From assembly GCA_963575745.1 (NCBI GenBank), contig CAUYUJ010000037.1, positions 620,001 through 671,342 on the forward strand: a DNA stretch of 51,342 nt. Reading direction: 5' to 3'. The DNA comes from Prorocentrum cordatum (lineage: Eukaryota). Below the pieces are notes generated by a model. The model did no database searches and was not told the origin of the DNA. It saw only the letters and a program-made list of their open reading frames with translations. Positions 25,681-51,342 of this stretch are shown piece by piece; the first letter of the stretch is position 1, and the number at the start of each line of letters is the position of its first letter. The translations under genes and the position numbers were made by a program.

Positions 25681-26863
25681 CGTTCTGTGTTACTTGCTCT
25701 TGGCGCAGATGCCTCATCACGAATTAGAGCGAGGAGGGCCGCGGTTGGAGAGCTCTCGAATGCGATTACGCACCTGACCTCCTGATCGTGTACAATGGCT
25801 TGCATGCCTTCCCAGGGGACACGTGACGCGCCATCATAGAGACGAATGCATTGAGCCTTCCTACGGTGCATCACCGCAGCGACGGCATTGAATGGGCACG
25901 AGTCCCTCTTCGGACCACCCCTCGGTGCCAGAGAATGACGTATGAAGGCAGTCATTGACACTTCGATGGCAAAATGCACTGCCCAGGAGATCGCTGCGTA
26001 GGGGACCGTAAGGCGGGGTTGGACATTTTAGTCAATCCTATCGTGGTTTGGAATGGACAGGCGATCGGGAAAGCAGCATGGCGCACTGGTGGAACTTTGC
26101 CCGCGCCGCGCGCAACCTGAAATTCACCGGCGTGGCGGCGCAAAGCGCCGCGCAATGATGCGCCTGCACTCTTGAACGCAAGGCCCGACGATCTACTGGC
26201 GGTCATGCGCAAGTCAACTACCCCGCACGCCGTCTCGACCGATTCCCGCTGCAAGCTCAAACTGACGGGGGGGGGGGGGGGGCGCGCGCCAAATTGCATT
26301 TCACATAATGTCGCATACGCACATGCAAATTAAGATATTGACTGGCTTTACACAGTACTTTGCCCCGTTCTTTATTTGCGGGGCGGGGAAGAGCTATATA
26401 TTTCAGAATGTTTTACGCCGCGCCGCTTTGGGAAGGGCCAATCCGCCTTCATCAAATTACACCAGCAATCAAACTGCATTCCGATGTCTTCGCATGATTT
26501 GGCAAAAAACGAACGTTATCTTGCAAACGACCCGTGGGCAAGCAAGTCGCGCGCCCAATCGGTGCGAATCAGAATATATACATATATACATATATATATA
26601 TACAGCACCTCGCAGAGACGCTGGTCGGACTGCAACGAGTAAGGGCTCGGCTTGAAACCAAGTCCCCGGGCTCATTTTCCTGAACTGCTGCTGGTTGATG
26701 TCATCGTTGTCAGATTGACACTCGGCTGCAATCACAATGGCCACGATGCCGATCACCTACTCCTGGCCCAGCGGTCTGAATTGAGCAGCATCCGCGCACG
26801 CACTATTCACACCGCCAAGTATCCGGGGCACGGCTTTCCAAAGTTCTAGACGTTTCGCGTATC

Positions 26864-29800
26864 CCCACGGTTCTCTCAAAGCTTGCCAACGACCTGGGTC
26901 TCTGTGTCAGCATGTTTGACAGGATGTTTCACGCCCTCCGCGGCCAAGACACGGCGGTGGTCCACCTGTCGATTTGCTACCGCATGCATCCGCAGCTCCT
27001 CGCCTTTACGAACGCAGCCTACTACGGCAAGGGTATGGCGAGCGGCATCTTGAACCCGCTCAGAGACAGGCCCATAGTTGAAGGCATCCCATGGAGAGAC
27101 ATCTCACCCTGGGAACCTAGGCGCCCGACGGAACTCGCCAAGCTCACCAGTTCCAACGAGGCCGACCTCAGCGCGACCCTTGGGCAGTTGGATCCTCCGC
27201 AGAACGGCGACAGGCACCGCTTCCCTCTTGTCGACACACCCTCGTGGGAGGTTACGTCCGGCCTCCAGCCAGGCTACGCCAACCTCCCCGAGGCAGCGCA
27301 GGCTGTGGACATGGCGCGGGCACTCCTCCCCGAGCTTGAAAGAGGCACCACCGTCCGAATCGTCGTTGGCTACCAGCTCCAAACGGCCATCCCAATGGAC
27401 GGCTGGCCACAAGGCCCGCGCCACCTCAGCGGCGCCCTGCGAAACTCGAAGAGTGGCAACAAAGGGAAATCCGGCAAGGGAAAAGGCAGTGGCGGCCATA
27501 GCGGGCGAGATATCCCCGGCCCTGGAACAGACTCCCGAGAGCACGAGGTCGACACTCACCGCTGGGAAACCGTCTTTCGGGAGGGTCGTAACGCCCACGC
27601 AGCTATCGGCACAGCCTTCCCTGGTCTCAGACAGAGTGCAGGCAAGCACATGAAAAGTGGGGCCCTCAAGCTCACTACCATCGACTCCAGCCAGGGCGGG
27701 GAGGCAGACATCGTGATTGTGCTGACCACCAGGAGCAACGGGATGCACAACTGGGGCTTTGTCGATGACGCCAAGCGGCTGAACGTGGCGAACACGAGGG
27801 CCAAGCGGAACATCATGATGTTGGGAGACGGGCGCATGTTCGCCAACGCCACTTGGTCCCAGCTACGTGCGCTTTCCGAATGCGGGCGCTTGGCCCGCCG
27901 ATGGGCCAGGTTCGGGGGCGACGGACCCGCCGGCCACAGGCAATCCCTGGTCATAGACGATAGGTTTGACCCACTGCCCGACCTCGCCACCTGGGCGCCC
28001 TCCCCCGTTGCCTGGAGTTGCGACGCGAAGGGAGAGGATGGGCGCAAGGAGCTCGATGCGGCCAAGAGAAAAGCCCGTGGCGCTCAGGCGAACAGCTTCG
28101 CCGATCGCTTCAACGCCCCACTGGCCGATGACTTCGACTGGGACTCCCTGGGCAAGTTCATCTCTGACGGCCTAAACGAGATCCTCTCGACGCCTGCCTT
28201 CCATGTGCTCATCTACCTGGTGGCGGGGCTCCACCCGCGTGAATTCTCGCTGTCCGAGACACCGCGGCAGCCTGGCAGACTCGACCAGAAGGCGTGGTCG
28301 CACCTGGGCTTCCTGTTCGACATGTCCCTGGGTTTAGACGCGACCAATCTGGTCTACAACATGCTCTGGGCAGCCATAGTGTGGTCACTCGGCCTTGGCA
28401 CTCCCTGGGAGGACGCAGGCCACGCAGTGTGCAACGACTCCCTCCCCCCGGCGCCGCACGTCAGGGGCCGACGTGCAACGGCGGGCGGCGACAGTGCACT
28501 CCCAAGGGACTTGTCCGACAGGTTCCCCAGGCGTGGAGTGCAACAACCAAGGACTGCTGCAGGCACAGGAAGCACCCTGGGATGGTTGGCCTGCAGGAGA
28601 TCTTAGGTAGTGCTTCCGTCGATCCAACCAGGGGCCGACTCCGGGAGGAGATCAAGGACACAGACGGCCTCCCCATGGAGTCTTGCAAGACCCGCTCGCT
28701 CCTGGTGGTCATGATGTTAATGCTCCGCGAGCCGCGCGTGTTCTTGTGGCCGTTCCCACACGCCGAACAGGCTGGGGACGTGATTGCAGCCATCCTGGGT
28801 TTCTGTGTCCCGTGGCAGGAAGCGCATCGAGGGTTCCGGCAGGACTTCGCGAGCACCTAGGGCCTCACGCTGGAGGACCTGGCCGATCTCCACGGGCGCA
28901 TCGAGGCAATCCTGCCACACATCTCCAAGCTCGTAGCGGTGGCACACCACCACCCCGACGCACAGGCAGCTGGCTGCCCGCAGACCTGGAGTGAGTTGGA
29001 CAGGCATGACTTCCAGCTGAAGGCCCCGCTGCTCGTCCTCGAGAAGATCGTCCCAGCCGCCTCACTGACCCCCCTGGGCACGCACCACTGCCCCCTGTGC
29101 GCGCTTCACATCGCGCTCGCGGGCTCAGACGCCTCCCTGGGTGACGACGACCGGGGTGCTGGGCTCGCCTACATCGGCGGCGGATTCGCCCTTTCCAACA
29201 CCGATCTGAACGCCCCCATGCCGCCCGCCCCCGCCCCAGGTACCAAGCAGGACCCCCCGCACATCCTCGACGACAGGCTGTTGGCTGAGCAGAAGCATGG
29301 CAGGTTCAAGTGCGACAGATGCGGCAAGGATCAGCTACGCTCCACAGACGGTACATGGATCTCGGACGATACTCGCCTGATGGTAGCGCAGAACCGGCCC
29401 CAGGCCTACCTCGACGGTACAAACATGGGATGGCACTGCGAGATCTGCTGGATTCGACACCTGGAGGACAAGGGCATCCCAGCACCAACCGGTGCAACAG
29501 TCGCGGATAAGGTCAAGGAGTACGAACACTGGAGGACCGGTGGCGCAAGTGACAAGAAGGCGAGTGCCCTCCCCTCCCTGGGTCATCTCCCACTTGGCTT
29601 TGGATGCAGCCCCCAATCGGACACGAGGACACTGGCGGATCTCATCATGACGCCGGCGGGCATGCACAACCCAAAGCGCGCCAACACCACTATTCCCATC
29701 CTACGGGTCAGGGATGAGCGATTCGGCCTTAAAGCTGCAGAGAACAAGGTCTACTCTGCTCGGTGCGACACATGCCCCCCAGGGGCACCGCTCCTAGTCT

Positions 29801-31878
29801 GGAAAACCGGAGCACCTCCCCTGGGATGCTTCATATGGAAGCCAAAGGAAGGAGTGGGTGTGCCCGAGCAAGCAGGGCTGCCTCCCATTGAGCGGCGAGC
29901 CATAGCCTGGTGGGAGCGCGACTGGAATGCCACGTGGTGCTGCCGGCGGCGCCTGGTCCCCATCTGGAACATCGGGCCCGCGACTCTGGACCACATCATT
30001 GGGAGAGACTACAGGGCACTGCACCCAGCCGAGGCCCCTGTCCTGCCGACGCTCAAAAGCCGGGTCGCAGCGGAGGCCCCGGTGGACATACTCCGCACCC
30101 TTCCCTGGATGGGCGCCGACGCCAAGGCCGCAGATCGCTTCGCCAAGACAGGAGCGGCAAACCTCCCTGGGTCCAGCGCCTTGGGAACAGCCGCCCCCGT
30201 GGCCGAGCAGGCCCCCAGGACTCTCCCGCAACTCATGGAGCTCCTGCCGGAGCTGCCAGTCCCCCAGGGGCCGCTCCTGGACTGCAGGGAGGTCACCAAC
30301 CCCACGCTCAGGTCAGACGACCCCAGGAGTAGGTCTGGCAGCGGAAACGTGGTCGTTCAGCAGCTTCTCGTGACCCACCTCCGGGACTTCCACCCTGGAC
30401 TGGACTACCTTTGGCGGCAGTTCTGCCACGGCCATTGCGATGATAACATCCCAGAGCCTAAAAACGAATAAGCCTCGTGGCCAGGCGGTCGGTTGACGAT
30501 TTTTCTCAGGGCGGCGTACGGCGACGACATCCCGGGGGATTGCTCCCCGCGCAACCAGCCCTGGGAAGGCAAGCGGCTGGCCGCCGCGCGAGTCGTCTCC
30601 CACCTCACCAACGGCGAGAAACACAAAGAGGCCTGGGAGCGGCACGTCTCGACCCTCGCCCCGGCGAGTGGCTTCAACCCAGTCAGACACGAGATGGGCA
30701 CGCTGACGAGCTTCCTGCTCAGCCTCAGTGCCGATGCCCTGGCCACGACAACCATCACCTCCCTGGCGGAGTCGCATGTGCAGGCCATGAGCGAGAACAG
30801 GCCCGGCAACGAGGCAGGGCGCCCTCCGACACAGTGGCTGGGCAAGCCCAAAGTTCCAGCAAGAACCGTGGGCGACACCTCCACAGCGGTTGGTGCAGAC
30901 TACTCCCTGGGTTCGAAAGACGCCGGGATGCGCGCTGGAGACCCGAAGGTGCCTGGCCCAGCTGCCAAAGAGGAGGACGACGAAGATGAAATTCCTGCCA
31001 CTGAGCGAGCGGATTCAGCCGACTTTGGAAGCCCCCAAGAGGCTCCTCCCCCTGATGACTGTCCGGACACGGACACGGGTGCGGAAGATGATGGCCCTGG
31101 CGCCAAGCCGCCACAGCAAAGCCCAACGGCAGAGAGCATGGAACCCAGCTCCGACGACGACCCTTTGAACGCCTGGGGTGGTGCAGCCACCACTGAGCAG
31201 AACGCCAGTGGTTCCAGGGGGCCAGGTCGAGACGAAGCCGCGCGAGACAGAGGCGCAGCACAGGACCACCGCCCCGCACTACGCAATCCGCAAGCACCAG
31301 ACCGCAGGCTGGCCTACTCTGGCGCCACGGAACGACGCGTTCTCAACCAGCTGACCGACGCCCACGGAGGCCCCATGTACAAGGCTTGGTTGGGCTCCGT
31401 GGACTTGGAGCGCCGCGGAGAGACGCCCGCCAAGTGCATCACCAGACACCAAGTTGACTTGGGTGGAGTATTCTGTGTCCTTTGGACTGCATACACAAAA
31501 GGCATCCGGATCCCTGGGTCCAAGGATCCCAAGTCAGACCCGAAGCTGCACACGGACGCGAACATCAACAAGTTCTTGGATGACTGGAAGCATTGCGGTT
31601 ACGATGCCTACGCGATGGACAAGAAGTTTAACTTCTGCATCGACTGGGCAACGGTGCGGGCCGAATACATGCGCCACACCAGGACAGACGGCACGGGCAA
31701 GGGCAACCACCAACAGAACAGCTGGCACGACCGGGCAAGGAGCTCCTGGGACGCCTGGGACAACTGGCAGAGTGGCTGGAGCTCCGGCTGGCACGACGAC
31801 CAGTGGCAGTCAGGAGGCAAGCGTGGCGGCGGCAGGCCAGATGACCGCGGCGAGAAGAGGCAGCGGTGGGGCGACTGA
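26864..31878 (+). pseudogene. 5'-truncated, disrupted ~1,670-codon ORF: C-terminal half of an Upf1/DNA2-like SF1 helicase, Cys-rich domains and a Trp/Gly-rich tail
   Basis: Helicase motifs: PTVLSK..GLCVSMFDR, CYRMHP, YANLPEA, VGYQLQ, TIDSSQGGEADIVI and RLNVANTRAK. One frameshift falls near 28450-28590. ORFs 28294-28860, 28939-30471 and 30493-31878 share one frame, broken only by TAG at 28858 and TAA at 30469. No introns are needed. Confidence 0.85.
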
Positions 31879-31964
31879 GCCCCCTCCCCCCCCTTCCCCA
31901 AGCGTTTCATGTGCAGCGTCTGTTTTCCACACTCTGTGCAGCCTTCTGTTGCCTCATGGGTTAC

Positions 31965-32564
31965 GTTTCATATACTCGGGCGGCGGCCTGCCGCCGCCCT
32001 CCCTGGTACACGCACTTCCTGCCTTTGGACCCAAGTGTGTTTACCAGCAGTACCGTCTGCATGGCATCACGGGGGCGCGTTGCGTGCAGGCCATAGTTGG
32101 CCCCGGCCCTGCTGTAGTTGTTTTCACCTCTGGCCCTGTTGGACTTCTTCCCCCGGCCTCGCGGCTCTGTGACCGTCGCCGATGGCGTTGCCTCGTCTCA
32201 GTCCAGAACCGCACTCACCATGCTCCCTGGGTTCTCAAAGGTACTGCGGCTTCAGCTGCTCTTCAGTTTCATATACACACGTGGCGGCCTTCCGCCGCCC
32301 TCCCTGGTACACGCACTTCCTGCCTTTGGACCCAAGTGTGTTTACCAGCAATACCATCTGCATGACAGCGCTGGGGCGTGTTGCGTGCAGGCCATAGTTG
32401 GCCCTTGGCCCCGCTGTAGTTGTTTTCACCTCTGGCCCACGGGATCCGTCCGCCGGCCTCGTGGTTCTGTGACCGACGCAAAGATGGCTTCGCCTCGTCA
32501 CTGTCCAGTACCGCACTCTTGCTCCCTGGGTTTCTCCATGGACAGCGGCCTTCAGCTGCTCTTC
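31965..32564 (+). repeat. ~301-bp tandem duplication in the 3' UTR of the helicase element
   Basis: GTTTCATATAC..CCCTGGTACACGCACTTCCTGCCTTTGGACCCAAGTGTGTTTACCAGCA..TTCAGCTGCTCTTC starts at 31965 and again at 32266. Confidence 0.9.
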
Positions 32565-35381
32565 TCTGCGCTCTCCTGGGTGCGACTGTGGGCGGGTGGC
32601 TTCCCGACAGCGGGTCTTCAACGTAGACCAGACGGTGCACTTCTGGTGCCGTTGAGGTACCCCTCCGGTGACAATGACTTGGGGTGCCCACCCGTAGGAC
32701 TTTGCCGCGTTCGGACGCAGGGACCAGTTGCGCACCGACCTGCGCGCACCGGCCTCAGCGTGGCAGCGGGTGGTCAGAAGACTGATCCCACATCTGTGCA
32801 GTGGTTCGCTGTTCCTTTGCTGGCCGCCAGTTTCGGTTGCCTGGACTGGCATCATCCCACCGTCGCGCCCCCGCTCCACCCGGACGAGCGGTCTTCCCTC
32901 GGCTTCTTCGTGACCACTGACTGTTGCTTGGGCTGCAGCTGGTAAGAGGCAGCACCGCTCCTCGAGCGCCCTCGTCTACTCCACTCAGGTACGCCAGGGT
33001 ACCTTGGTTAGGCGGCTCCGGTTGTGCTGGTCACGTTAGTTGCTTCCTGGTACGCGTCCCTGTTCTAATCTGGTTGGCGTCGCTTGCGATTTGTGGCCGT
33101 TAGTGGAGTGGGACTGTTGTCCCTTCCGCATGGCGTCACATCATGTCACTTGATGGTCGCTTGCGTTCGCACCTATTCGCGGCTGTCTCCTGGGCCTGGC
33201 GTGCTTGGTTCGGTTCGACACCACGAACTCCACGCCTTTGGGCTGTGTGGGTGCGCACTCTGGAGCTGCGACGGTTCGCTGGCGCTGTCAGAGCGAACCT
33301 TTCGTACGGGATGCCGACTGACGATTGCTTTTGTGTCTTTCGGTTGGTGCTTGTGCGTGGCAGGTCCCCTGGATCCCCTCGCACTTCTTTCCCTCCGAGG
33401 TTGGGGACTTCCTCCTGTTCAGTTAGTGTCTCAGACCGCTTGGTTCTGTTGCCTCTGACACGGTGGGGGTCTTGCATCGCGCCACTTTGGCAGCGTAGTT
33501 ACTTCTCCCTGGGCGCTGGGTTCCCATCAGACTCCCTGGGCAGCAGCACCCTTGCACCTGCCGCCCGGCGCCGGCCGCGGTACGCGCGCGCCCCTGGCCA
33601 ATTTATAGCGGCCGCAGCCCGACCGTTACCCGCCGCCCGCCCGCGGCTGTATAAAAAAAGTATCCCCACCAGTCGGGCTTTAGCCGAGTTCTGCGACAGG
33701 GTGCCATGATAAGTGAGGCCGCTCTCTGTGCCGCCGTTCCTTCTCTTACTGGCGCTGTGTGCCTCGTCTGACGTCCGCTGCGTCGCCTTCGCTCCCTCCC
33801 CCCCCTCTTGCCCCCGCTTGTGATTCGGCTGGAGCTTGGCGCCGCAAGGGCGACTTCTCCCTCCGTTCCGCCTGGTCTCCGCGCCTCTGCGTCCCCACCT
33901 GCTGGGATGCCTGTGCCGGTCACCTCTAATGAGGGTAATTTTGTCCCAGGCACGTGCATTCGCCATTGCGGCTTACGCGCTTCTTTGGCAAATTATCTAC
34001 GGCATGTGCCCCAGCCGTTTATCCCGCTTCTTGACCCTTGTCTTGGAGCCGCCGACCAAAAAAGTATCCCCACCAGTTCGCTCCCGCTCCCTGGCCGTCG
34101 CCTTGGAGCCGCTAACCAAAAAAATGTATCCCCACCAGTGCTCTTGCCGCCTGACCGTCGTCTCGCGGCCGCGACCGAAAAAGTATCCCCACCAGTGCCG
34201 TTTGCAGTCAGCTCAGCCAGCCTCCCTTCAGCCCGCGGCCCCGCCGGCGGTAGGTTCTGAGTGTGGCTTAGCCGCTGCTCGTTTAGGCCTGCGCGCTGCT
34301 AGTTTGACAGGCCCGTGGCCCGGACCTCTCAGCTCGGCGACTGCGACTCCGCGTCCGCCCGCGACCAAAAAAGTATCCCCACCAGCCCATTCAGAAACGA
34401 TGTTTAGGCGAGTTGAGAGGTGATCAGGGAAGTGCGGGAGCAAAGAGGTGGACGGCCGAACCGCGTGAAGAAGAGAGGGGGCGAAGGAGAAAATTTGATG
34501 GATGGATGAGGGAGTAGGGCGAAGGAGGATGAATAGGATGAGGAGGAGGAGGAGGAGGAGGAGGAGGAGGAGGAGGAGGAGGAGGAGGAGGAGGAGGAGG
34601 AGGAGGAGGAGGAGGAGGGGGAGGAGGAGGGAGGAGGAGGAGGAGGAGGAGGAGGAGGAGGAGGGGGAGGAGGAGGATGAGAAGGGATAGGAGGAGGAAC
34701 GAGGAGGAAGAAAGCAAGCAAAAGGGCCAGAGTTCTCTTGGATGTTTCTCGGAGCCTCTCGGGGTATCTCTTGGCCGTCTTGGGGCTCCCTTGGCGGTCG
34801 TGGGGGGCTCTTCGGCGTCTTGGGTGCCTCGGGGGGGCCTCTTGGGGCCGCTTGGGATCCTTTTGGGGGCCTCCTGGGGGCCTTTTGGGGGCCTCTTGGG
34901 GCCATCTTGGGACCTCGACGACGACGACCGACGCCGAGGCCCCTTGAGATCCTCGAGGCCAGAATTTCCGCATGTGTTTTCGCTTTCCCAGGCCAATATC
35001 CAAAACAATAAATCACACAATTAAGTTTGAGTAACGAAATAAGTCCCGTAAGTTCCATATGTTCATATTGGTGATAAGAGCCGCATGTCATTATTCAACA
35101 TATCGCTACTATGATGTAAGGTTTTCGATTTGCCCATCGATTTTATGAGTTGAAAGGGGTGGGCGGTATCATGTTGACATTTGATATTGCAAGCACACTG
35201 TGCACATACAACTCAACTTGAGGATTGCTCAAGTCCCTATGATGTTGCTGATGCCCAGCTTCTCTGGGCAACCCTCTCAGGAGGGACCTCCCCGGCGATC
35301 GGCCGGACGGGGGACACCGGTGAGACAGCGTCGAAGCGCCAGGAGGGATGATGCGGGGCCGAAAGAGCTTGGGCGATCCAG

Positions 35382-35546: not shown

Positions 35547-36725
35547 CTCTCTCACACACAGACATTGTGCACACACAGGCAAATTCTGACACACGTTTGC
35601 ACTCGAAGGGTTTCTCGTCGCGCATCTTGGTTGCCTCATTCATCCTGCCGATGAGCCACCCTACAACCAACATATACACATAACGGGGGACCGGGTCCTG
35701 GGGGCCCAGGCCGAGAGCTCGACCACAAATGTGTGGACTGGGCTGCCTGGAGCCTTGCCGGCGCGCCAGAGGCCCTCTGAGATCGCCCGCCCGAAGACGG
35801 CCCTGGATTGCCTGAAAACACGGTTCGAGACCGCCAGAACGGCCCATGACGGCTCCAGATTGTTGAGAATTGGCCATCGCCTGTCCAAGAGGTCTCCAAG
35901 GCACCCCAAGAGGCCTCCACGAAGCTTCCCAAGAGGTAAAGGTTTAGACGGATTTGGGTTTTCTTGTTTTTTGTCGGTTTCCCAAAGCTCCAAGGCGGCC
36001 CGAGACGCCTCCAAGGACGCCCCAATATTGCCCAAGAGGCTCCCAAGAGAGCCCCAGGACGCTCCGAGAGAGTTCCACGACGGCCCCGAGAGGGCTCCAA
36101 GACGGCCCAAGAGGCCTCCAAGACGGCCCAAGAGACCCCCGAGACTACTCCAGAGAGGGTCCAGACGGGAGCGGACATCTTGAGCCCTCGGCCTCGAGCG
36201 GCCCCACGGAAGCCCAGAGAGGCCCCTAAGAAACCCCAAGAGGCCCGAAGAGGCTTCCAAGAGGCCCCCAACCCCCAAGAGGGCCGAAGAGGCCTCCAAG
36301 AGGCCCCCACCAGGCCTCCAGGAGGCCCCCACGAGGCCTCCACGAGGCCCCAAAGAGCCAAATTCATTCATATGTCAAAAGTTTTGGAGGATTTGGGCGT
36401 TCTCGCCTGTGCGGCTTTCCGACGTTCCGAGGCGGCCCAAGAGGCTTCCAAGATCGCCCCACCATTGCCCAAGAGGCCCCCAAGAGCGCCCCAGCTCACC
36501 TCAAGAGTTCTCCAAGGCGGCCGCAGAGGCCCGCAAGACGGCAGTCCCAGAGACCTCCAGGACGTCCCGATAGACCTCGACGAGCGCTCCCCAGACGGGA
36601 CCAAGAGCTAAAATGAATTGATATTCCTGACGCTTTTGAACGACGCCCCCAGGCGACCCGAGAGAACTCCAAGACGCTCAAAGAAGCCTCCATGAGGCCT
36701 CTCAAGAGGGCCCAAAGAGGCAAAA

Positions 36726-36744
36726 GTCATTGTTCTGGCTCAAG
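36726..36744 (+). other. Degenerate dinoflagellate spliced-leader relic
   Basis: GTCATTGTTCTGGCTCAAG resembles the 3' part of DinoSL (GCCATTTTGGCTCAAG). It sits at the boundary between repeat and unique DNA, about 115 bp upstream of the ATG of an intronless gene. Confidence 0.55.
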
Positions 36745-36858
36745 CAAGGCTGCCTCCAAGCTCTTGTGGCCTCTTGCATCCGAGCCCGCACTGCGGGCTC
36801 GGATGCACGAAGCTGCGGGCCCCGCAGCGAACCCGTCAGCTCCGGCCGACCGGACCCC

Positions 36859-38430
36859 ATGCTGCGCAGCCCAGCGATGCAGCTGGCCGCCAAGGGCAAG
36901 AGAGACGGGGAAAGCTCACGCCCGGTGGGCCGTTCCAGCAGATTGGGCAGCTTGGGGTCGCATCCGTCACCTAGCCGCAGGGCTTGCTCCAAGACGCGGC
37001 TGTCGATGCTGGCTGCAGATGCCAGCGGCGTGAGCCTGGCTGGAGGCGGACAGCGCCACTGCATCATGCGTGGTGCTGTCGCCGACCCTTTAAAGGCTGT
37101 GCCAGACGCCCAAGGGTGCGCGACCCCCAGCACAGCGGCTGGCTCACCCGCGTCCTCTCGTTCGGGCTCGATGCCTGCGAGCAGCCGCCCAGTCTCGAGG
37201 CTGCCTGAAGCAGGGAGCTGCGGAGCGCCAGTGGCGGTGGTCGACATGATCCGCTCCAGGCGTGGTGGTCGCAGGCCCCCGTCTGGGGCGCCAGCGCGCG
37301 AGGCACCGGAGCTTGCGCGGAGCGGTGCGGGCAGCGGCCCCGCTTCCTGGGGATCGTCGCGCACCGCGGGCTCGGCGGCGGCGGCGGTGCAGAGCCACTG
37401 CAGGGACGTCAGGGAAGTCTGCCGCCTTGCCAAGACCCTGCAGCTGCCGGTGGCAGAGGTTGAGCGGGCATGCGCCCTCTTCCGGGACCATGCTCAACCC
37501 CTCGCCCCGGGTGCCGAGATGCTCAGAGACGGGCGCCTTGGCCACGAGCAGTTTGCCAGGCTCGTGCGGAGCCACCTGACTCGTGACAGCGGCGGGGTGG
37601 CGGAGTGGTCCATTAACAGGGTAATGCATGCCCTCAAGAGCGTGCGCGAATCCGATGGTGTCAACCAGAATCTTTGCCTGAGCTTCGAAGAGTTTGTTGT
37701 GTGCATGCACATCCTGTCTCTCGATCGTGCGGCGGAGGCGAAAGAGGCGGAGCGGAGCCACGGCAGGGACGTCGCGGAGGTTTGCCGCCTTGCCAAGACC
37801 ATGCAGTTGCTGGTGGCAGAGGCGCGGCGGCTGTACACCCTCTTCGGGGACTACGCCGAGCCCCTCGCCCCAGGGGCCAGGATGGTCAGGGACGGGCGCC
37901 TTACCCAGGAGCAGTTTGCCAGGCTCGTGCGGAGCCAGCTTACGTGGGACAGCGCCGTCTCAGCAGAGCAGCACGTTGAGAGCATAATGTCTTCAGTCAG
38001 GAAGGTGTGTGAGGCCGCTGGTGTCAAGCGGGGTCGCGGTCTGAGCTTCCATGAGTTTTTGGAGTGCACGCGCATCCTGTCTTTCGACGGTTGCATCCTA
38101 TCTGGGGAGGAGCGCGGACTGCGCAGGATGGCCCAGAAGTACGACCTAGGATTCGTCGAGATCGACAGGTACAAGAAGGTGTTTGACGAGCTAGACGCAG
38201 AACGCAGCGGCAGAATTGGCCGCCAGGCATTGGATAGCTTTTTCAACAAGTTTGGCATCTTCGCGGAGGACATACGCCACGCCGACACGCGCAAACACGA
38301 CATTTGGCTCCTAGCGGATCCAGACCTCAAGGGTAGCATCGACTTTGAAGCGTTCCTGATCTTCAACTTGAAGTACGTTAGCCGAGGAGCCGAAGGCCTC
38401 TATCAGTACTTTGGGGCATGCGCGGCCTGA
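36859..38430 (+). CDS. Intronless EF-hand calcium-binding protein (523 aa from the first ATG) with an internal 121-aa duplication
   Basis: EF-hand-like loops FDELDAERSGRIGRQAL and ADPDLKGSIDFEAFL. The block RDVxEVCRLAKTxQLxVAE..DGRLxxEQFARLVRS occurs twice, at about 37391 and 37754. Confidence 0.8.
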   Translation: MLRSPAMQLAAKGKRDGESSRPVGRSSRLGSLGSHPSPSRRACSKTRLSMLAADASGVSLAGGGQRHCIMRGAVADPLKAVPDAQGCATPSTAAGSPASSRSGSMPASSRPVSRLPEAGSCGAPVAVVDMIRSRRGGRRPPSGAPAREAPELARSGAGSGPASWGSSRTAGSAAAAVQSHCRDVREVCRLAKTLQLPVAEVERACALFRDHAQPLAPGAEMLRDGRLGHEQFARLVRSHLTRDSGGVAEWSINRVMHALKSVRESDGVNQNLCLSFEEFVVCMHILSLDRAAEAKEAERSHGRDVAEVCRLAKTMQLLVAEARRLYTLFGDYAEPLAPGARMVRDGRLTQEQFARLVRSQLTWDSAVSAEQHVESIMSSVRKVCEAAGVKRGRGLSFHEFLECTRILSFDGCILSGEERGLRRMAQKYDLGFVEIDRYKKVFDELDAERSGRIGRQALDSFFNKFGIFAEDIRHADTRKHDIWLLADPDLKGSIDFEAFLIFNLKYVSRGAEGLYQYFGACAA

Positions 38431-40752: not shown

Positions 40753-41618
40753 GGAGGTTGGGGGGTGAGATCGAAGTGGAACGGAGAGCCCCCCTACCGG
40801 GAAATCGATTTCGGTTTCGTGTTCGTGCGTGCCGTGCGGGCGAGGCGAAGCTGCGTGGGCGGGCGAGAGAACGTCTCCTGTGGCTGAGGCGCGGCCGGAC
40901 CAAATGTCTCCCTTCCGGGCGGCCGTGGGCCCGCGGTGTCCCGCCGGTGTCCCGCTGGTGTCCCGTGTGGCTGAGGCGCGGCCGGACCAAATGACTCCCT
41001 TCCAGGCGGCCGGGGGCCCGCGGTGTCCCGCTGGTGTCCCGCTGGTGTCCCGTGTGGCTGAGGCGCGGCCGGACGAAATGATTCCCTTCCGCGCGGCCGG
41101 GGGCCCGCGGTGTCCCGCCGGTGTCCCGTCGGTGTCCCGTCGGTTTCCCGATAATGATGATGTTGATGATGATAATGATTGCTATGTTGTTGCTGATGAT
41201 AATGACGATGGTGGTGTCCCAGTGATTATGATGATGGTGTTGATGATGATGATGATATGACGATGATGATGATGTGTCTGCCCGTTGTTGTTGATGATGA
41301 TGTTGGTAATGATGATGCTGATGATTATGGTATCCCGATGATGATGATTTTGACGGTGGTGCTGATGATGGTGTTGGTGATGGTGTACCTATGATGATAT
41401 TGATGATGATGTTGGTGATGATGGTGCTGCTGATGATGATGGTGTCCCGATGATGTTGATGATGCTGTTGATGATGATGATGATGATGATAATGAGCTGA
41501 TGTTGATGATGGTGTCCCGATGATGTTGATGATGTTGACGATGAAAATGGTGGTGACCATGGAGGTGTCCCGATGATGTTGATGATGCTGATGGTGATGA
41601 TGACGATGGTTGTGTCCC

Positions 41619-41685
<67 letters not shown>

Positions 41686-42037
41686 GCATGATGATGACGG
41701 CGTTGATGATGCTGATGACGATGATGATGATGAAATTGTCCCGATGACGATGAAAATGATGGTGTTGATGATGATGATGACGTTGAATGTTAGATCGATT
41801 GTTATATCGGTAGTGAGATCGATAGTGAGACCGAATGTGAGATCGATTGTGAGATCGATAATCAGATCAATTGTGAGACCGAGCGAATGAGATAGATCGA
41901 GTGAGATCGATTGTGATATCGACCGAGTGAGATCGATCGAGCGAGACCGATAGTGAGATGGATAGTGAGACCGATCGAGTGAGACGCTGCATCCTCCCCC
42001 CCCCGAACCTCCTTATCACCCGAAGGGTGGTCTTATA
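40753..42037 (+). mobile_element. Non-autonomous element with (sub)terminal inverted repeats and a 3' hairpin (Helentron/DINE-like architecture)
   Basis: GGAGGTTGGGGGG at 40753 pairs with CCCCCCGAACCTCC ending at 42012. CACCC-GAA-GGGTG follows at 42017-42029. Flanks are TA-rich. The interior holds three 87-bp repeats (40879, 40966, 41053), (GAT)n and GAGATCGAT repeats. Confidence 0.5.
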
Positions 42038-42385: not shown

Positions 42386-44965
42386 CAAGAGGTTGCAAGG
42401 AGCTTCAGGAGCTGCTCCCGCCTGGTGCCCCAGGTCTCCCACATGTCTGCAGGCCTCGCAGAGGCCTCCAGGAGAGCTCCCCAGAGCTCACACACTTGGT
42501 TTCCCCTAGTTTTTTCCACGTCTCTCCCCTTGCAGCCTGTTCTGCACCCCCACGCTGCGCGGCAGCCCCAGAGGACGCCCAGACCGTCCCGGTTCGGCCC
42601 CAGACGCTCCCAACCTTGTCCCAGATGTCTCCGCATGGGAGGATCGGCGCGCCCCAGTAGGGTCACAGAGAGGCCAGGGACGCTCCAAGATCCCTGCGAC
42701 GCCGACGATCACCCCAAGACAGCCCCCCGAGCGACTTCGTCGACGCGGCATGCTCCCAAGAGGCCTCCTCGAAGGGCTCTCTGAGGTCGTATTCCTTGTT
42801 TTTTCCATTGGTTTTTCCACGCTTTCACTCATCCAGCGTGTTCTGCATCCCCACTCTGCACGGCAGCCCAAGAGGACGCCCAGACCGATGCGGTTCGGCC
42901 CCCCGGGGCCCCCAACCGCGATCCAAGACGGCCCCGCATGGGAGGACCAGCGCCCCCAACTAGGCTCCACGAGCCGCCAGAGTCGCTTCCAGGCCTGCGC
43001 GACGCCGACGATCGCCCCACGACAGCTTTCCAGGCCACCTCGCCAGCAAAAGAGGCTTCCTAGAGGCTTCCCACAAGGGCCCCCAGAGGCTCAACTCCTA
43101 GTTTCCCCCATGTTTTTTTTTCCCCCGGTTTCTGGCCACCCAGATTGTTGTGTTTCTCGACGGTGCAAGCTCGTCCTAGAGGTCCCCAAGACTGCCCCGC
43201 GACGGCTCCAGAGGCTCCCAACCGTGCCCCATGACGGCACCAGAGTGCACCCTGACGGCTGAAGCGGCGGCAACGAGGAACCCCGAACACCCCAACACGG
43301 CCGATTGGGGCCACAAGAGAGGCCTGGGGGCCTTTGCGGTCGCCAGGGGCGGTTTCGACACTGTTGATTGCGTCTCGGCGAACCGCGACCGAGCCAAAGA
43401 CCTGTCACAGAGCTCAAAGGACGGGGAGGAGAAGCAGGACGAGGACAAGGAGGAGGGGAACGATGAGGACGAGGAGGGGGAGGAGGAAGAGGAGGAGGAG
43501 GAGGAGGAGGAGGACGACGAGGAGGAGGAGGAGGAGGAGAAAGAAAGAGGAGGAGGAGGAGGAGGAGGATTTGGAGTAGGAGGAGAAAGAAAGAGGAGGA
43601 GGAGGATGTGGAGGAGGAGGAGGAGGAGGAGGCGGAGGAGGTGGAGGAGGTTGAGGAGGAGGTTGAGGAGGAGGAGGAGGATGAGAAGCAGGAGGAGGAG
43701 CAGGAGCAGGATGAACAGCTGGAGGAGGACGAGCAGTAAGAGGAGACGGCGGGGAGAAGGCGGAGGAGGAAACGGAGGAGGAGGATGAATAGGCAGGGGG
43801 GCGGGGGGGGGGTTGCCTCCTCCTCTGCGTTTTCGTAATCCTCCTCTCCTCCTCCTCCTCCTCCTCCTCCTCCCTCCTCCTCCGCCTCCTCCTCCCTTCT
43901 CCCCTCCTCCCTGATCCTCCTGCACCTCCTGCTGCTGCTGCTGCTTGCTCCTCTGTTTCTCCTCCTCCTCTCTCCTCTCCTGCTACTCTCTCCTCTCCTC
44001 TCCACCCCTGCCCTCCCCCATCACCCTCCCTCCTCCTCCTCCTCCTCTCTCCTCCTCCTCCTCCTCCTCCTCTCCTCCTCCTGCTCCCCCTCCTGCTCTT
44101 GCTCCTCCTCCTGCTCCTACTCCTGCACCTCCTCCTTTGATGTTGCTCCTCATCCCCTGCCCCCCCTCCTCCTCCTCCTCCCCCTCCTGCTCCTCCTCCT
44201 CCTCCTGCTCTTCCTGCTCCTGGGCGTGGGGTCCTGGGGCCGCACTCTCGGGGCCGAGGAGGGGTCCAGGGATCGTGGAGGATTCTAAGGGCCGAAGATG
44301 GGTCCACAGGCGTCCACGCGGGTCCCCAGAGCCAGCGGTCCAATGCCCAGGGTCCAGAATCAGTCAAGGGCGGACGAGAAGGAGGAAGACGACGAGGAGG
44401 AGGAGGAGGAGGAGGAGGAGGAGGAGGAGGAGAATGAGGAGGAGGAGGAGGAGGAGGAGGAGGAGGAAGAGGCCAGGGAGGAGACGAAGGCGAACGAGGA
44501 CGAAGGCGAGCACGAAGACAAAGGGCGAGGAGGAGGCCGACAACGATGACGAGCAGGGGGGGAGTCCGGGCAGTTCTTTGTTGGGCTGCGGGTTTCGTCC
44601 CCCGCTCCTTGGGGTGGATTTACCGCTCTGGTTCGGTTTGTACCGGTTTGATTCGGCCCCATTCGGTCCACAAGCGATATTGGTTCGGTTCGGTTCGGGT
44701 CTCTACCGCGACCATTCCGGTTCGGTTCGATTCGTCTTGGGGGGTGCGCTGGTTCGCGCCCGTTCGATTCAGCCTGGCTCAGTCCAGGCAGTTCTGGAAC
44801 CTTCCTGCAACGAAACACTGCGACGGAGTTACGCCAGGAAGGAGGCACCACAGTACGAGATTTCCGAGGCTCCAGGAGGGTCCGCCGTCAGGACCCTCTG
44901 GAACGAGATCCGCTGTCGATGGCACTGCTTGCCGTGGTATCCGTTGGTGCCATGGTGCCACGACT

Positions 44966-45887: not shown

Positions 45888-47770
45888 CGCACGATGCGTT
45901 TTAAGCTGAGGCCCCCAAGACGCCCCGAGAGGCCTTTCAGATGGCGCCCAAGAGCGCCCCGAGAGGGCAAACTCGTTGATTTCCATTGTTGTTTTTTTCA
46001 ACTGTTTTTTTTGCATTCTCGTTGTTTCGTGTTTCGGGCACTAAAGCACCACCCAAGAGGCTCCCAAAACCTCCAAGACGGCCCAAGAGGCCCCAAGAGG
46101 CCAAGAGGGCCCAAGACGGCCCAAGAGAGCCCCGAGACGGCCCCAGAGCCGCCCAAGACGGCGCAAGAGGGTCCCAAGAAGGCCCCAAGAGGGGCCCAAG
46201 AGAAGGAACGCGAACTGAAAAAACAAGCTCTTTGCCCCAAGATGCCCCCAGAGGCCCCAAGAGGCCCCAGAGGCCCCATGAGGCCCCCAAGAGGCCGCAC
46301 GATGCATTTTAAATTGCCCTGGAGGCCCCCAAGATGCCCCAAGAGGCCTTTAGGATGCCGCCCAAGAGCGCCCAGAGAGGGCAAAATCGCTGATTTCCAT
46401 CTGTTTCTTGAAATGTTGTTTCTCGCTGTCTTGTGTTTCCGGCGCTAAAGCACCGCCCAAGAGGCTCCCCAAACCGCTCCCAGACGGCCCAAGAGGCCCC
46501 CAAGAGGGCCCCAAGACGGCCCAAGAGAGCCCCGAGACGGCCCCAGAGCCGCCCAAGACGGCGCAAGAGAGTCCCAAGAAGGCCCCAAGAGGGGCCCAAG
46601 AGAGGGAACGCGAATTGAAAAATCAAGCTCTCCGCTCCAAGATGCCCCCAACAGGCCCCAAGAGGCCCCCGGGAAGCCCCCAAGAGGCCCCACGAGGCCC
46701 CCAAGAGGCCGCACGATGCGTTTTAAATTGCCCCAGAGGCCCCCAAGACGCTGCAAGAGGCCTTTGAGATGGCGCCCAAGAGCGCCCCGAGAGGGCAAAC
46801 TCGTTGATTTTCATGTTTTTTTCAATGTTTTTTGCATTCTCGCTGTTTCGTGTTTCCGGCGCTAAAGCACCACCCAAGAGGCTCCCCAAACCGCTCCCAG
46901 ACGGCCCAAGAGGCCCCCAAAAGGGCCCCAAGACGGCCCGAGAGAGCCTCGAGACGGCCCCAGAGCCGCCCAAGACGGCGCAAGAGAGTCCCAAGAAGGC
47001 CCCAAGAGGGGCCCAAGAGAGGGAACGCGAACTGAAAAATCAAGCTCTCTGCCCCAAGATGCCCCCAGAGGCCCCAAGAGGCCCCCAGAGGCCCCATGAG
47101 GCCCCCAAGAGGCCGCACGATGCGTTTTAAATTGCCCCGGAGGCCCCCAAGACGCTGCAAGAGGCCTTTGAGATGGCGCCCAAGAGCGCCCCGAGAGGGC
47201 AAACTCGTTGATTTTCATGTTTTTTCAATGTTTTTTGCATTCTCGCTGTTTCGTGTTTCCGGCGCTAAAGCACCACCCAAGAGGCTCCCCAAACCGCTCC
47301 CAGACGGCCCAAGAGGCCCCCAAAAGGGCCCCAAGACGGCCCGAGAGAGCCCCGAGACGGCCCCAGAGCCGCCCAAGACGGCGCAAGAGAGTCCCAAGAA
47401 GGCCCCAAGAGGGGCCCAAGAGAGGGAACGCGAACTGAAAAATCAAGCTCTCCGCCCCAAGATGCCTCCAAGAGGCCCCAAGAGGCCCCCGGGAAGCCCC
47501 CAAGAGGCACCAAGAGGCCCTCAAGAGGCCCCAAGAGGCCCCCAAGACGGCCCAAGAAAGCCCCGAGACGACCCCCAGAGCCGCCCAAGACGGCGTAAGA
47601 GAGTCCCAAGAAGGCCCCAAGAGGGGCCCAAGAGAGGGAACGCGAACTGAAAATCAAGCTCTCCGCCCCAAGATCCCCCCAACAGGCCCCAAGAGGCCCC
47701 CGGGAAGCCCCAAGAGGCCCCCAAGAGGCCCCCAAGAAGCCCAACTCAGGCTCCAAGAGGCCCCAAGACG
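45888..47770 (+). repeat. Tandem satellite with a ~404-414-bp unit, about 4.5 copies, CCAAGAGG-rich
   Basis: CGCACGATGCRTTTTAA occurs at 45888, 46296, 46710 and 47114. Confidence 0.9.
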
Positions 47771-48100: not shown

Positions 48101-48816
48101 GTATATATATACACACACACGCATGCGTTCATGCATACATGTGTATAGATACATGCATGCATGCAACCACATGTATATATATATATATATACATTTATAT
48201 AGTGTGCCACATGCATTTGCAAAATGCATATAACCATACATTCATGCATGCATATACATGTGTAGAGTGTAGACATCTTGGCTAAATAAACACATACTTC
48301 GTTACGTACGTACTCGCAGGCGTGCATCAATGCATGCATGCATACGGACAGACATGCATCCATGCATGTATACATACATTCATACAGACACGCGGTCCAT
48401 AAGAAGCTCGTCTAGAGCGATGCAAGAAGAACACATCATTGATTGTCCACCGTTTTCGTTTACGGATTTGCAGCTTCTCGCTATTTCTGCTTCCCGACTG
48501 CTCAAGACGTCCCAACAGGTTCCCAAGACCGCCCCTGGGAGCTCCAAGAGGCTGCCACGAGGGTGCCTCCACTGCCTACGAGGGCCCAAGGACGGGTCGG
48601 GAGCCACCCAAGACGGCAGAAGGGGGCCCGAAAAGATACCCCAGGACGGGGCAAGGAGCCCCCAATATGCATCAAGACCGCGGCCCAAAATGATTTCAAG
48701 ACGCTCAAGTGGCGTCTTTCGAGGCCGAAAGATATGCAAAGTGTTCCCCGAGAGCGCCGAATGAAGGACAAACCATTGATCTGCCTTCGGCTTTTGAAGA
48801 ATTTTTGACGCTTCGC

Positions 48817-49428
48817 ATATCCCCACAAGCTTGTGCACTTGTTGCGTCGGCCTATGCGCCGTCGTAACCAATTATCTTGCCCTGTGCCCCTGCCGAGACC
48901 ATCCCGCTTCTTGGATGTGTCCTTGAAGCCGACAATAAAAAAAAGTATCCCCACCAGCGCCCCTGCGAGTGAGGCCTCCATCTGTTCCCCCCTTTCTCCT
49001 GCCGCCGCTTGCCCTTGCGCCCGCTGTGTCTCTCCTGTTCCTTGGCCTCCTCCTCGTTTCATGGACGGTGCGGCCTCAGCCACTCCGTGCCGCCACAGCG
49101 CGGCGTGCTCCACGCCCTTGCGCGCTGTTCGGTACGGTCAGAGCTTGGCGCCACTTGTGCGACTGCTCCTTCCGTCCGTTTTCAGTTTGGTGTTTGCGTT
49201 CCCCTGTTTCGGGCCGCCAGCGTCCCAATGAGGGTCATTTTGTCCCTGGCACGTGCACCCGCTGCCGCGGCCTATGCGCCCCAGCAGCTAATTATTTCGC
49301 CCTGTGCCCCAGCCAAGTCCGTCCCGCTTCTTGGATCTGTCCTTGGAGCCGCCAATCAAAAAAAGTATCCCCACCAGTTCCGCCTGACCGTCGTCTCGCG
49401 GCCGCGACCGAAAAAGTATCCCCACCAA
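48817..49428 (+). mobile_element. Array 2: three stacked A-tailed inserts separated by RTATCCCCAC(CAR) repeats
   Basis: Motif copies at 48817-48826, 48945-48957, 49365-49377 and 49416-49428. A-tracts are A8, A7 and A5. Inserts are about 118, 407 and 38 bp. Confidence 0.85.
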
Positions 49429-50403
49429 CCCATCCAGAATTGATTGCCAGTTTTCTTGGGGCCTCTTTGGAGGCTATCTTGAGCAATGCTCGGCTAGAGG
49501 CTGTCGGAGGCCATCTTGAGCCATGCTCGGCTATCTTGGGCCACCGTGAGGCTGCCTTGAGGCCTCTTGGAGGTCTGTCGGAGGCTATCTTGAGCCACGC
49601 TTGGCTATCTTAAGCCAGTTTGAAGGCCATCTTGGGCTATCTAGGGTTCTCTTGGAGCCATTTTGAGCCAAAAAGGGCGGGGTGGAGGGTCTTTGGGAAA
49701 GGCTGGGAGGCCTCTTGGGGCCATCTTGGGCCCCATGTCTCAAAAAGAGGAGGTGCCTTAATTCGGATCCCCCCCGCCGGAGGCTCTCAAACGGCGTCTT
49801 GGGGCCGTCTTGGAGCGCTCTTGGGCGCCTCTTGGGCGATCTTGGGGCCGTCTTCGGCCTTCTTGGGCCCCTCTTGGGGCCCTTTTGGGCCATCATGGTG
49901 CCATCTTGAGGCTTCCAAAGCCCATCGGAAGCGGAAAGGCGAGAATGCCAAAAACATTGATTTTCCCTTGGGTTTGGAGTGTTTTGGGATCTTGGAATTC
50001 GCCGTGGAGGGCTCGAAGGGCACTTGGATCCGTCTTGGGCTGTCTTGGGGCCTCTTGGGGGTATGTCGGAGGCTATATTGACCCATCTTGAAGTAACATG
50101 GGCCATCTTGGAGGCCATCTTGCGCCTTTGAACGCCTCTTGGAGCAATCTTGGGCCATCTTGGACGCTCTAACGCCTCGCGGCGCGCCCCGTCCAGGCCC
50201 AGGGGAGGGAACGGGGGGGAGGGGCTTCAGTGGAAGAGAAAAGAAACAAAACGCGTTATACCACCTAAGCCCAGAGGGCTGGTGGGATTTGTGCGTTTCA
50301 CTTTTCTGCTTCCCGTCCGTCCAAGACGGTCCAACAGGCTCCCAAGACCACCCCACGACTGCCCACGAGGGCCAAGAGACGGGCGACGGTCAACTCGCAT
50401 AGT

Positions 50404-50570
50404 AAGGATGGGCAACCTTCTCAAGGGTACCCTTGCATCCTTGCCTCCTCGGTCCATCCTTGGCGACTTTCGTTGGCCGCGCGCTGCTCGAAAGACTTCA
50501 CAATTGGCGGCCAAGACCCTTGCATCCTTATCGCGCATCTTTGCTATACTGGTTGACTGTAGGAGTCACC
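50404..50570 (+). repeat. Dispersed ~170-bp repeat, copy 2
   Basis: AAGGATGGGCAACCTTCTCAAGGGTACCCTTGCAT..., homologous to 13897-14068. Confidence 0.7.
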
Positions 50571-51342
50571 CAAGACGGCCAAAGGGAACCCGAGAAGAGC
50601 CTCCAGACGGCGCAGGAGGCTCCCAACATGCCCCAAGAGCGCTCCAAGACGGCCCAAGATATCCAGACGCTCCAGGGGCGCCCCTGAACCCCTAGGATGT
50701 CCACAAGAGGCTCCTCCAGAGCGCCGAAAAGGGGACTAACGATTGAGTTTCACCTGGCTTGTGAAGGATTTTGAGCTTCTCGCGTTTCCTGCCCCGGCCG
50801 CCCAAAACGGCCCAAAAGGCTTCCAAGACCGCCCCTGGGAGATTCAAGCGGCTGCCAAGAGAGCCCGCGACTGCCCACGAGGGCCCAGGTAGAGCAACCC
50901 AAGACGGCCCAAGGGGGCCCCAAAAGAGCCCCCGGAGGAACCACAGACAGAGAAGGTACGAAGCTCCGAAACAGCTCCAGGGTGCTCCAGAATCCTTCAC
51001 GATAGCCTCCGGATGCCGCAGGAGACGCCCCGAGACCCCGAGACCTCCCTAAGAGCGTTCCAAAGTTCCTCCAGCGAGCTGAAAGAAGCCCAAATCTGTA
51101 ATGTTCCCAAGGTGTTTGACAGGTGCTCCTCTTCCCCTTCTGTCGGGATCCCGACCGCCCAAGACGGAACCAAAGGCTCTCAAAACCTCACCTGGAAGCC
51201 CCAAGGGGCTGCCAAGAGGGCCACGCGAATGACATACAGAAAGACAGTCAAACATAGACAGAGAAAGAGAGAATGAGAGGGATCGGTCTCGATAAGCAGG
51301 TCGACCCCACAGACTCAAGGCCACCCTGGTGTCCCGTCTATC

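Follow-up and report, generated by a model that had tools for sequence, protein, structure and literature searches.

A-tailed, 5'-truncated inserts stacked at a recurrent target sequence in the dinoflagellate Prorocentrum cordatum

Results

Two arrays of A-tailed inserts share one target sequence

In a 51,342-nucleotide stretch of Prorocentrum cordatum DNA (contig CAUYUJ010000037.1, positions 620,001 to 671,342; hereafter the window), three A-tailed inserts separated by exact copies of the 13-mer GTATCCCCACCAG lie at 48817-49428. We call this group array 2. In our interpretation, poly(A) RNAs were probably inserted at a multicopy target time after time by target-primed retroposition, through the action of a reverse transcriptase (RT) encoded outside the window. 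A further group, array 1, lies upstream. The 3' junctions between A-runs and the 13-mer are precise, the 5' ends are variable, and the inserts fall into four unrelated families, one of them represented by a truncated helicase pseudogene; the arrays are independent of each other, and uninterrupted sites exist elsewhere. A preliminary description of this DNA had placed three A-tailed inserts between two flanks in array 2, and a reading of 48788-49442 bears this layout out:

48788-48816, + strand: left target part (L), T-rich, with AATTTTTGA; tail of the CCAAGAGGCC-repeat unit family
48817-48829, + strand: leftmost, degenerate motif copy ATATCCCCACAAG; positions 2-10 intact, position 1 with a CpG-to-CpA change
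48830-48944, + strand: insert A, family alpha, 107 nt plus A8, 5'-truncated
48945-48957, + strand: internal motif copy GTATCCCCACCAG
48958-49364, + strand: insert B, family alpha, 400 nt plus A7, the longest alpha copy of the window
49365-49377, + strand: internal motif copy GTATCCCCACCAG
49378-49415, + strand: insert C, family beta, 33 nt plus A5, 5'-truncated
49416-49428, + strand: rightmost motif copy GTATCCCCACCAA, one letter off (..CCAA)
49429-49442, + strand: right target part (R), CCCATCCAGAA (cccatccagaa), matching 34386-34396

The 39-mer left flank CGGCTTTTGAAGAATTTTTGACGCTTCGCATATCCCCAC (48788-48826) has a single exact occurrence in the window, and the right flank of array 2 reads CAACCCATCCAGAA. 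The internal motif copies are uniform and the outer, host copies deviant, as first described: the former read GTATCCCCACCAG, the latter ATATCCCCACAAG on the left and GTATCCCCACCAA on the right. The A at position 1 of the left copy is a CpG-to-CpA change and proves nothing by itself.

Array 1 comprises five exact motif copies at 33660-34385 and a left edge at 26859, where a degenerate copy, cgcGTATCCCCACgg, is found. The flanks of array 2 had been said to mirror those of array 1; the likeness holds on the left (31 of 39 columns identical), with the correction that the matching left flank is at 26831-26868, 6.8 kb upstream of the point where the exact motif copies begin. A 6.8-kb insert therefore belongs to array 1 as well, whose layout is as follows:

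26831-26868, + strand: left target part and motif positions 1-10 (cgcGTATCCCCAC)
26869-33659, + strand: insert 0, family delta, a 6.8-kb 5'-truncated decayed helicase retrocopy ending in A7
33660-34385, + strand: remainder, in the order motif, alpha (391), motif, alpha (49), motif, beta (44), motif, gamma (177), motif
34386-34430, + strand: right target part, CCCATTCAGAAACGATG, the R type commonest in contigs

Every exact motif copy is preceded by an A-run

The 12-mer GTATCCCCACCA has eight exact copies in the 51,342 bases, each on the + strand, five at 33660-34384 and three at 48945-49427. When up to two mismatches are allowed the number of matches rises to 11, against 4.13 +/- 2.07 in shuffled sequences, and none of 100 shuffles reached 11. 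An A-rich 3' end is joined precisely to this one target position in all eight exact copies, with a pure run of A5-A8 before seven of them and A7 plus T before one. In seven of the eight, A5-A8 is followed by G, which fits the rule for dinoflagellate poly(A) sites given in PMC2488372. The beta copies carry an identical A5 in both arrays.

All six internal motif copies are full 13-mers, and in five the next letter is T. The left-edge junctions retain motif positions 1-10 alone, at 26859, at 48817 and at a contig joint at 48826 described below; the CCCCAC of the 26859 edge overlaps helicase codons. Both internal copies of array 2 end in CCAG, and the right-hand copy beside the local flank ends in CCAA. 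Among contig variants at 10% or above, no A-to-G change is listed at 49428, although very-low-support rows are shown, which suggests that CCAA is a variant belonging to the target type of array 2.

Other identities of the motif were considered and set aside. There is no tRNA and no long terminal repeat (LTR) to support a tRNA 3' end, a CCA tail or an LTR primer-binding site; 13 nt is too short for an intron; and a relic of the dinoflagellate spliced leader (DinoSL) was dropped after a search with the DinoSL core. An untemplated T after CCAG was likewise dropped, as in A1_3 beta templates that T. Folds for 3' hairpins before the A-runs gave z values of -1.5 to +0.7, within chance, with the A-run and motif unpaired in every fold; a hairpin in alpha shows two compensatory pairs among three sequences, too few to count.

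The inserts belong to four families with common 3' ends and different start points

We compared the eight inserts pairwise (28 pairs) after removal of A-runs, with z computed against shuffles. Seven of the 28 pairs are related, and the remaining 21 have z of at most 2.8, so that the inserts sort into four unrelated families. Family alpha consists of 33673-34063, 34077-34125, 48830-48944 and 48958-49364 (z 4.2 to 38.4) and family beta of 34139-34182 and 49378-49415 (z 17.4), while gamma (34196-34372) and delta, the helicase copy, have no relatives among the inserts. Copies of a family have their 3' end in common and differ in where they start: alpha bodies measure 41, 107, 385 and 400 nt and beta bodies 33 and 39 nt, that is, 5' truncation is graded within each of these two families. 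Families that are unrelated in sequence nevertheless have one 3' junction in common.

The two long alpha copies (insert B and 33673-34063) agree in 269 of the 425 columns of their alignment (by BLAST, 75% over 213 nt; z 27.3), and insert A is identical to the 3' end of insert B at 92 of 115 columns (z 38.4). In the beta pair, all 38 letters of the array 2 copy match the array 1 copy, which starts six columns further 5' (38/44 columns). Alpha copies are thus 63-80% alike and beta copies identical. The longest alpha copy (400 nt) has no open reading frame (ORF).

The two arrays are not explained by one duplication

A common origin of the two arrays, in which a single ancestral array underwent segmental duplication or unequal crossing-over and no site-specific insertion took place, is in our assessment extremely unlikely. 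Alpha precedes beta in both, and flanks of approximately 39+13+11 nt are common to them, as such a history would have it. The right flanks, however, are alike for about 11 nt only, and further out than the shared stretches (39 nt left, about 11 nt right) the arrays agree at just 28 of 63 and 51 of 110 columns, BLAST returning no other match between the outer flanks. The number and length of inserts also differ between arrays, and contigs with empty sites and other junctions speak against duplication as well. Because the outer flanks are unrelated, the truncation points differ and beta is identical while alpha is diverged, the arrays are not the outcome of one duplication; as regards the INDEPENDENCE of the two arrays, a single duplication fails to explain both. 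The proposal of a second, independent array at the same target is accordingly upheld by the short shared flanks, the differing 5' ends of beta and the contrast between alpha (63-80%) and beta (identical).

Contigs of public runs contain empty sites and further junctions

We aligned Logan contigs of four public runs (X1 to X4) to 48700-49520 at a likeness of at least 85%, obtaining 447 contigs from X1, 175 from X2, 64 from X3 and 30 from X4. Empty sites, in which left-flank-type ..AATTCTTGACGCTTCGC is joined straight to 49416, occur in three X1 contigs and one X2 contig. Ten X1 contigs depart from the reference after the alpha, A-run and motif succession (49377), often into R-like sequence, and nine contain beta copies reaching further 5'. 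Seven X1 and five X3 contigs change after 49439 to ACGATGCCCAGGCGAGTTGA.., the right flank of array-1 type. From one X2 contig the beta unit alone is missing (joint 49358>49411), and in one X1 contig 48826 is connected to 49054 across four other letters, which represents another truncation point. Word depth summed over X1 contigs, which is not a copy number and is used here only as a sign of many copies and of 3' bias, climbs from 2-6 (left flank) through 40-210 (5' part of insert B) and 240-890 (3' part of insert B) to 1745-2514 (motif and right flank).

The contigs of X4, tentatively an RNA run, which by its coded label is organism C and not the organism of X1, contain L, motif and R uninterrupted, with high summed depth on the left part, and neither alpha nor beta over 48700-49520. 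The target is therefore older than the alpha and beta inserts. One target has been used at independent loci, two of them in the window, and empty sites are present among the X1, X2 and X4 contigs. The expectation of more sites genome-wide was borne out by these uninterrupted targets, the other junctions and the many alpha and beta copies; by flanks and contigs alike, the arrays are neither the only two loci nor one locus duplicated.

Short-pattern searches of wider collections returned chance matches. A 16-mer, too short a pattern, gave 119 metagenome loci, all single chance matches on inspection (L057, for instance, is a kinase gene on the other strand), and a 24-mer gave one chance match in the genome contig collection, in a gene of a bacterial metagenome-assembled genome, and none in viral contigs.

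The target is a multicopy sequence

The target consists of about 40 nt of L, then GTATCCCCACCAG, then CCCATTCAGAA, and is multicopy. Its left flank is a variant of the T-rich tail of CCAAGA-repeat units, with the TATCCCCAC continuation found only in the two arrays; 48600-48805 is 69% like 50562-50772 by BLAST. An Rfam scan of the window at gathering thresholds gave no matches, and scans of 48600-49600 and 48640-48832 at E<=10 gave chance-level matches only; ARAGORN found no tRNAs in the window. The target was thus not recognised as a curated small RNA (small nuclear RNA, spliced-leader RNA, 5S or tRNA), although the sensitivity of Rfam is lowered because the inserts split the target. A loose likeness by eye to U2, U4 or U6 had no Rfam support and was rejected.

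Directly left of the insertion point, 48799-48812 holds an Sm-site-like AATTTTTGA and a small hairpin (ACGC-TTC-GCGT), where X4 summed depth is high. Blocks of CCAAGAGGCC-type 10-11-nt repeats occur in both orientations at 45908-47519, 2182-2347, 36213-36516 and 49793-49912, each followed by a T-rich tail ending in TTCTCGC, of which the left flank of the target is a variant; one such block is a 403-bp tandem repeat of 3.9 copies.

The delta insert is a decayed copy of a giant helicase gene

The first ORF of delta encodes the C-terminal half of a UPF1-like superfamily 1 (SF1) helicase (Pfam AAA_12), and its alignment with UPF1 structures opens at ORF residue 29, equivalent to nucleotide 26864. 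It is 50% identical to P0006, a metagenomic protein of 2,541 residues with a helicase core at residues 610-1130 and no further Pfam domain. By tblastn, residues 780-1368 of P0006 align to 26807-28528 (49.6%), and residues 1340-2540 align in a different frame to 28444-31869 (36%), a stretch interrupted by in-frame stops near 28858 and at 30469. The match of P0006 residues 780-2540 to 26807-31869 thus contains one frameshift and two in-frame stops, and residues 1-779 have no tblastn match anywhere in the window. The coding part ends at 31875 and is followed by a 3' untranslated region of approximately 1.78 kb and by A7 (33653-33659), after which the motif begins. Given the missing match to residues 1-779, the frameshift, the stops and the A7 end, delta is a 5'-truncated, intron-less, A-tailed and decayed retrocopy of a giant helicase gene.

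The helicase family is diverse, with 75 cluster representatives at E<=0.001, mostly short fragments, some of which are 79-92% identical; one member, of 2,945 residues, has the same architecture. Matches of the family to PDB entries are confined to the helicase core. No RT domain was found in P0006, in P0015 or in five other helicase relatives, and a search of viral contigs with P0006 gave no match. The region 26780-33659 (+ strand) as a whole is a decayed retrocopy from an intron-less family of giant proteins of approximately 2,500 residues, with several CxxC pairs, a UPF1-like SF1 core and no other known domain. The translation of 26801-26863 has a weak likeness to helicase motif III of P0006, with the essential GDxxQLPP lost. 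The idea that the right flank is the 5' end of a helicase gene was rejected, the MPRR/MPKRR likeness being too short and no N-terminal tblastn match being present in the window.

Discussion

Repeated retroposition at one site and its rivals

If the arrays formed as we propose, a single copy of the target would have been hit by retroposition three separate times to give the stack of array 2. A sequence-specific nick just left of the 13-mer would prime reverse transcription of polyadenylated RNAs from their A-tails, the substrates in the window being the alpha, beta and gamma RNAs and the helicase mRNA (delta), and copying would end prematurely at the 5' end. After each event the insert would be bordered left and right by the 13-mer; since the motif would be regenerated with every insertion, the site could be hit repeatedly and arrays could grow head to tail. 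We infer that the enzyme is a site-specific non-LTR-type RT/endonuclease encoded elsewhere, that it nicks at the positions given, and that the 13-mer derives from the target and is not partly templated by RNA.

Several results weigh against this scheme. None of the 191 stop-to-stop ORFs of at least 130 residues in the window contains an RT or endonuclease Pfam domain, neither domain was found in the helicase family, and the Rfam scans give the target no identity. Similarity to P0006 persists in the 21 residues that precede the helicase junction (6/21 identical, a score reached by 2 of 5000 random windows and the best of five offsets), which blurs the start of the delta insert; this similarity is either chance or a hint that the left part of the target is related to the helicase gene. 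The motif does flank every insert, but left copies keep positions 1-10 only, against six complete copies of six in internal positions, and the internal CCAG of array 2 differs from the local right-hand CCAA; simple serial target-site duplication predicts neither. The A-runs are also short (5-8) and the A5 of beta is the same in both arrays, so the A-runs could be templated.

The ten-position left edges, the CCAG of the internal copies and the constant A5 of beta fit the idea, put forward in the preliminary description, that at least part of the 13-mer is carried by the RNA. The retroposition would be the same, with donors residing in target sites and transcripts reading through the A-run into GUAUCCCCACCAG, perhaps ending at CAG; the RT would copy this tail and jump from a prematurely ended template to the next such RNA, an array would be built in one event, and the leftmost, imperfect copy alone would be original target DNA. 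We regard this account as possible but rather improbable. It would explain why six of six internal copies are perfect, why left edges, those of both arrays and that of one X1 contig, reach no further than position 10, why array 2 has CCAG internally and CCAA at its right-hand end with no A-to-G change listed at 49428 at 10% or above (very-low-support rows being shown), why beta has one A5 in both arrays, and why 104 motif letters are unchanged while alpha copies differ by 20-37%. It requires, however, read-through donors for four unrelated families, including an apparently ordinary helicase mRNA; the rightmost copy of array 2 should then read CCAG too, unless priming covers position 13; CpG decay accounts for the A at position 1 of the left copy; and the evidence comes from two fully read arrays.

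Conservation of the motif might instead reflect function in expression. In dinoflagellates, genomic poly(A) sites read AAAAG/C, with G or C after 3-5 A, and AG serves as trans-splice acceptor (PMC2488372). The A-run, G, TATCCCCACC and AG could accordingly form a dinoflagellate processing cassette (AAAAG-type poly(A) site, pyrimidine tract and spliced-leader acceptor AG), the arrays being small polycistronic units retained for expression and more than insertion scars. Besides those site types (PMC2488372), the best named protein match, which is to Prorocentrum cordatum, the invariance of the motif beside divergent inserts and the consistently unpaired A-run and motif agree with it. We nonetheless judge it very unlikely, as the inserts are fragments of 33-400 nt of longer sequences without an ORF, one insert is a decayed pseudogene, the DinoSL search gave one match with two mismatches against 1.57 expected, and a cassette would account for the conservation of the motif, not for the origin of the arrays. 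A further proposal, which we consider doubtful, is that the 13-mer is a portable RNA end and no scar. RNAs ending in an A-run and GUAUCCCCACCAG, which would arise by read-through or as outron-type products through cleavage at the trans-splice acceptor CAG, would be copied and linked to one another by template jumps at a conserved landing site. Each captured fragment would then carry both a poly(A) site of dinoflagellate type and an acceptor for the spliced leader, and the locus, dedicated to cDNA capture, would help to explain the recycling of mRNAs into expressible gene copies in dinoflagellates.

Relation to known systems

In target-specific non-LTR elements the 3' boundary is precise and the 5' boundary varies; target-site duplications measure 0-20 bp, and tandem insertions are occasionally seen (PMC4640811). 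R2, R1, NeSL/CRE and Utopia/Keno resemble the arrays in their use of one defined position of a multicopy sequence, their precise 3' junction and their 5' truncation (PMC4640811). They differ in that no RT/endonuclease ORF was found in the window and in that the site is used by four or more unrelated A-tailed RNAs, among them a helicase mRNA of cellular type; moreover, the target here is not a recognised RNA gene and the arrays lie in a dinoflagellate.

Processed pseudogenes and chimeric retrocopies mediated by long interspersed nuclear elements (LINEs) are cellular RNAs copied in trans, 5'-truncated, intron-less and A-tailed, in which template jumps join different RNAs. The arrays resemble them in truncation, A-tails and lack of introns; LINE-mediated pseudogenes, however, are scattered genome-wide and are not known to have a constant 13-nt spacer, whereas here all units terminate in one motif at a single type of site. 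Drosophila HeT-A/TART, Giardia GilM/GilT and Chlorella Zepp pile up 5'-truncated, A-tailed units in one orientation. Head-to-tail stacking is common to these and to the arrays, but theirs lie at chromosome ends or nested in each other's tails and are not known to have a regenerated internal target motif.

RNA-derived gene copies (retrogenes) are common in dinoflagellates. As at the junctions described here, dinoflagellate poly(A) sites are marked in the genome by brief A-runs with G or C next to them (PMC2488372). The retrogenes are recognised by 5' relics of the 22-nt DinoSL; the arrays have no such relic, the search for its 15-nt core having returned its one match at 49662, which is not at an insert start. 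Our literature search found no report of site-specific retroelements or of such arrays in dinoflagellates, and a search with the motif string returned only unrelated papers.

Dinoflagellate genomes are thought to have been shaped by large-scale reinsertion of mRNA copies, a process for which we know of no described machinery or landing sites. The arrays present a defined, conserved, multicopy landing site that has repeatedly taken up 5'-truncated poly(A) RNAs of unrelated origin. Such a site offers a handle on the RT responsible, on whether the junction comes from target or RNA, and on whether the spacer of A-run, pyrimidines and AG makes the captured pieces expressible; it also marks a giant intron-less helicase gene family as a source of retrocopies.

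Genomic context of the arrays

The window has a G+C content of 50-70% and many 10-11-nt CCAAGAGGCC-type repeats, and marine metagenomes contain 5-8% of its sampled words. Downstream of array 1, a long ORF with an EF-hand pair (36640-38427, + strand) has its best named match in a Prorocentrum cordatum protein (53% identity, with 55% of the query covered) and includes a 363-bp internal tandem duplication (37383-38087). Upstream of array 1, a run of approximately 17 G stands at 26266-26283 in unique surroundings. Trinucleotide arrays are present at 34523-34708 (AGG), 43425-44472 (GGA/TCC) and 41150-41780 (GAT).

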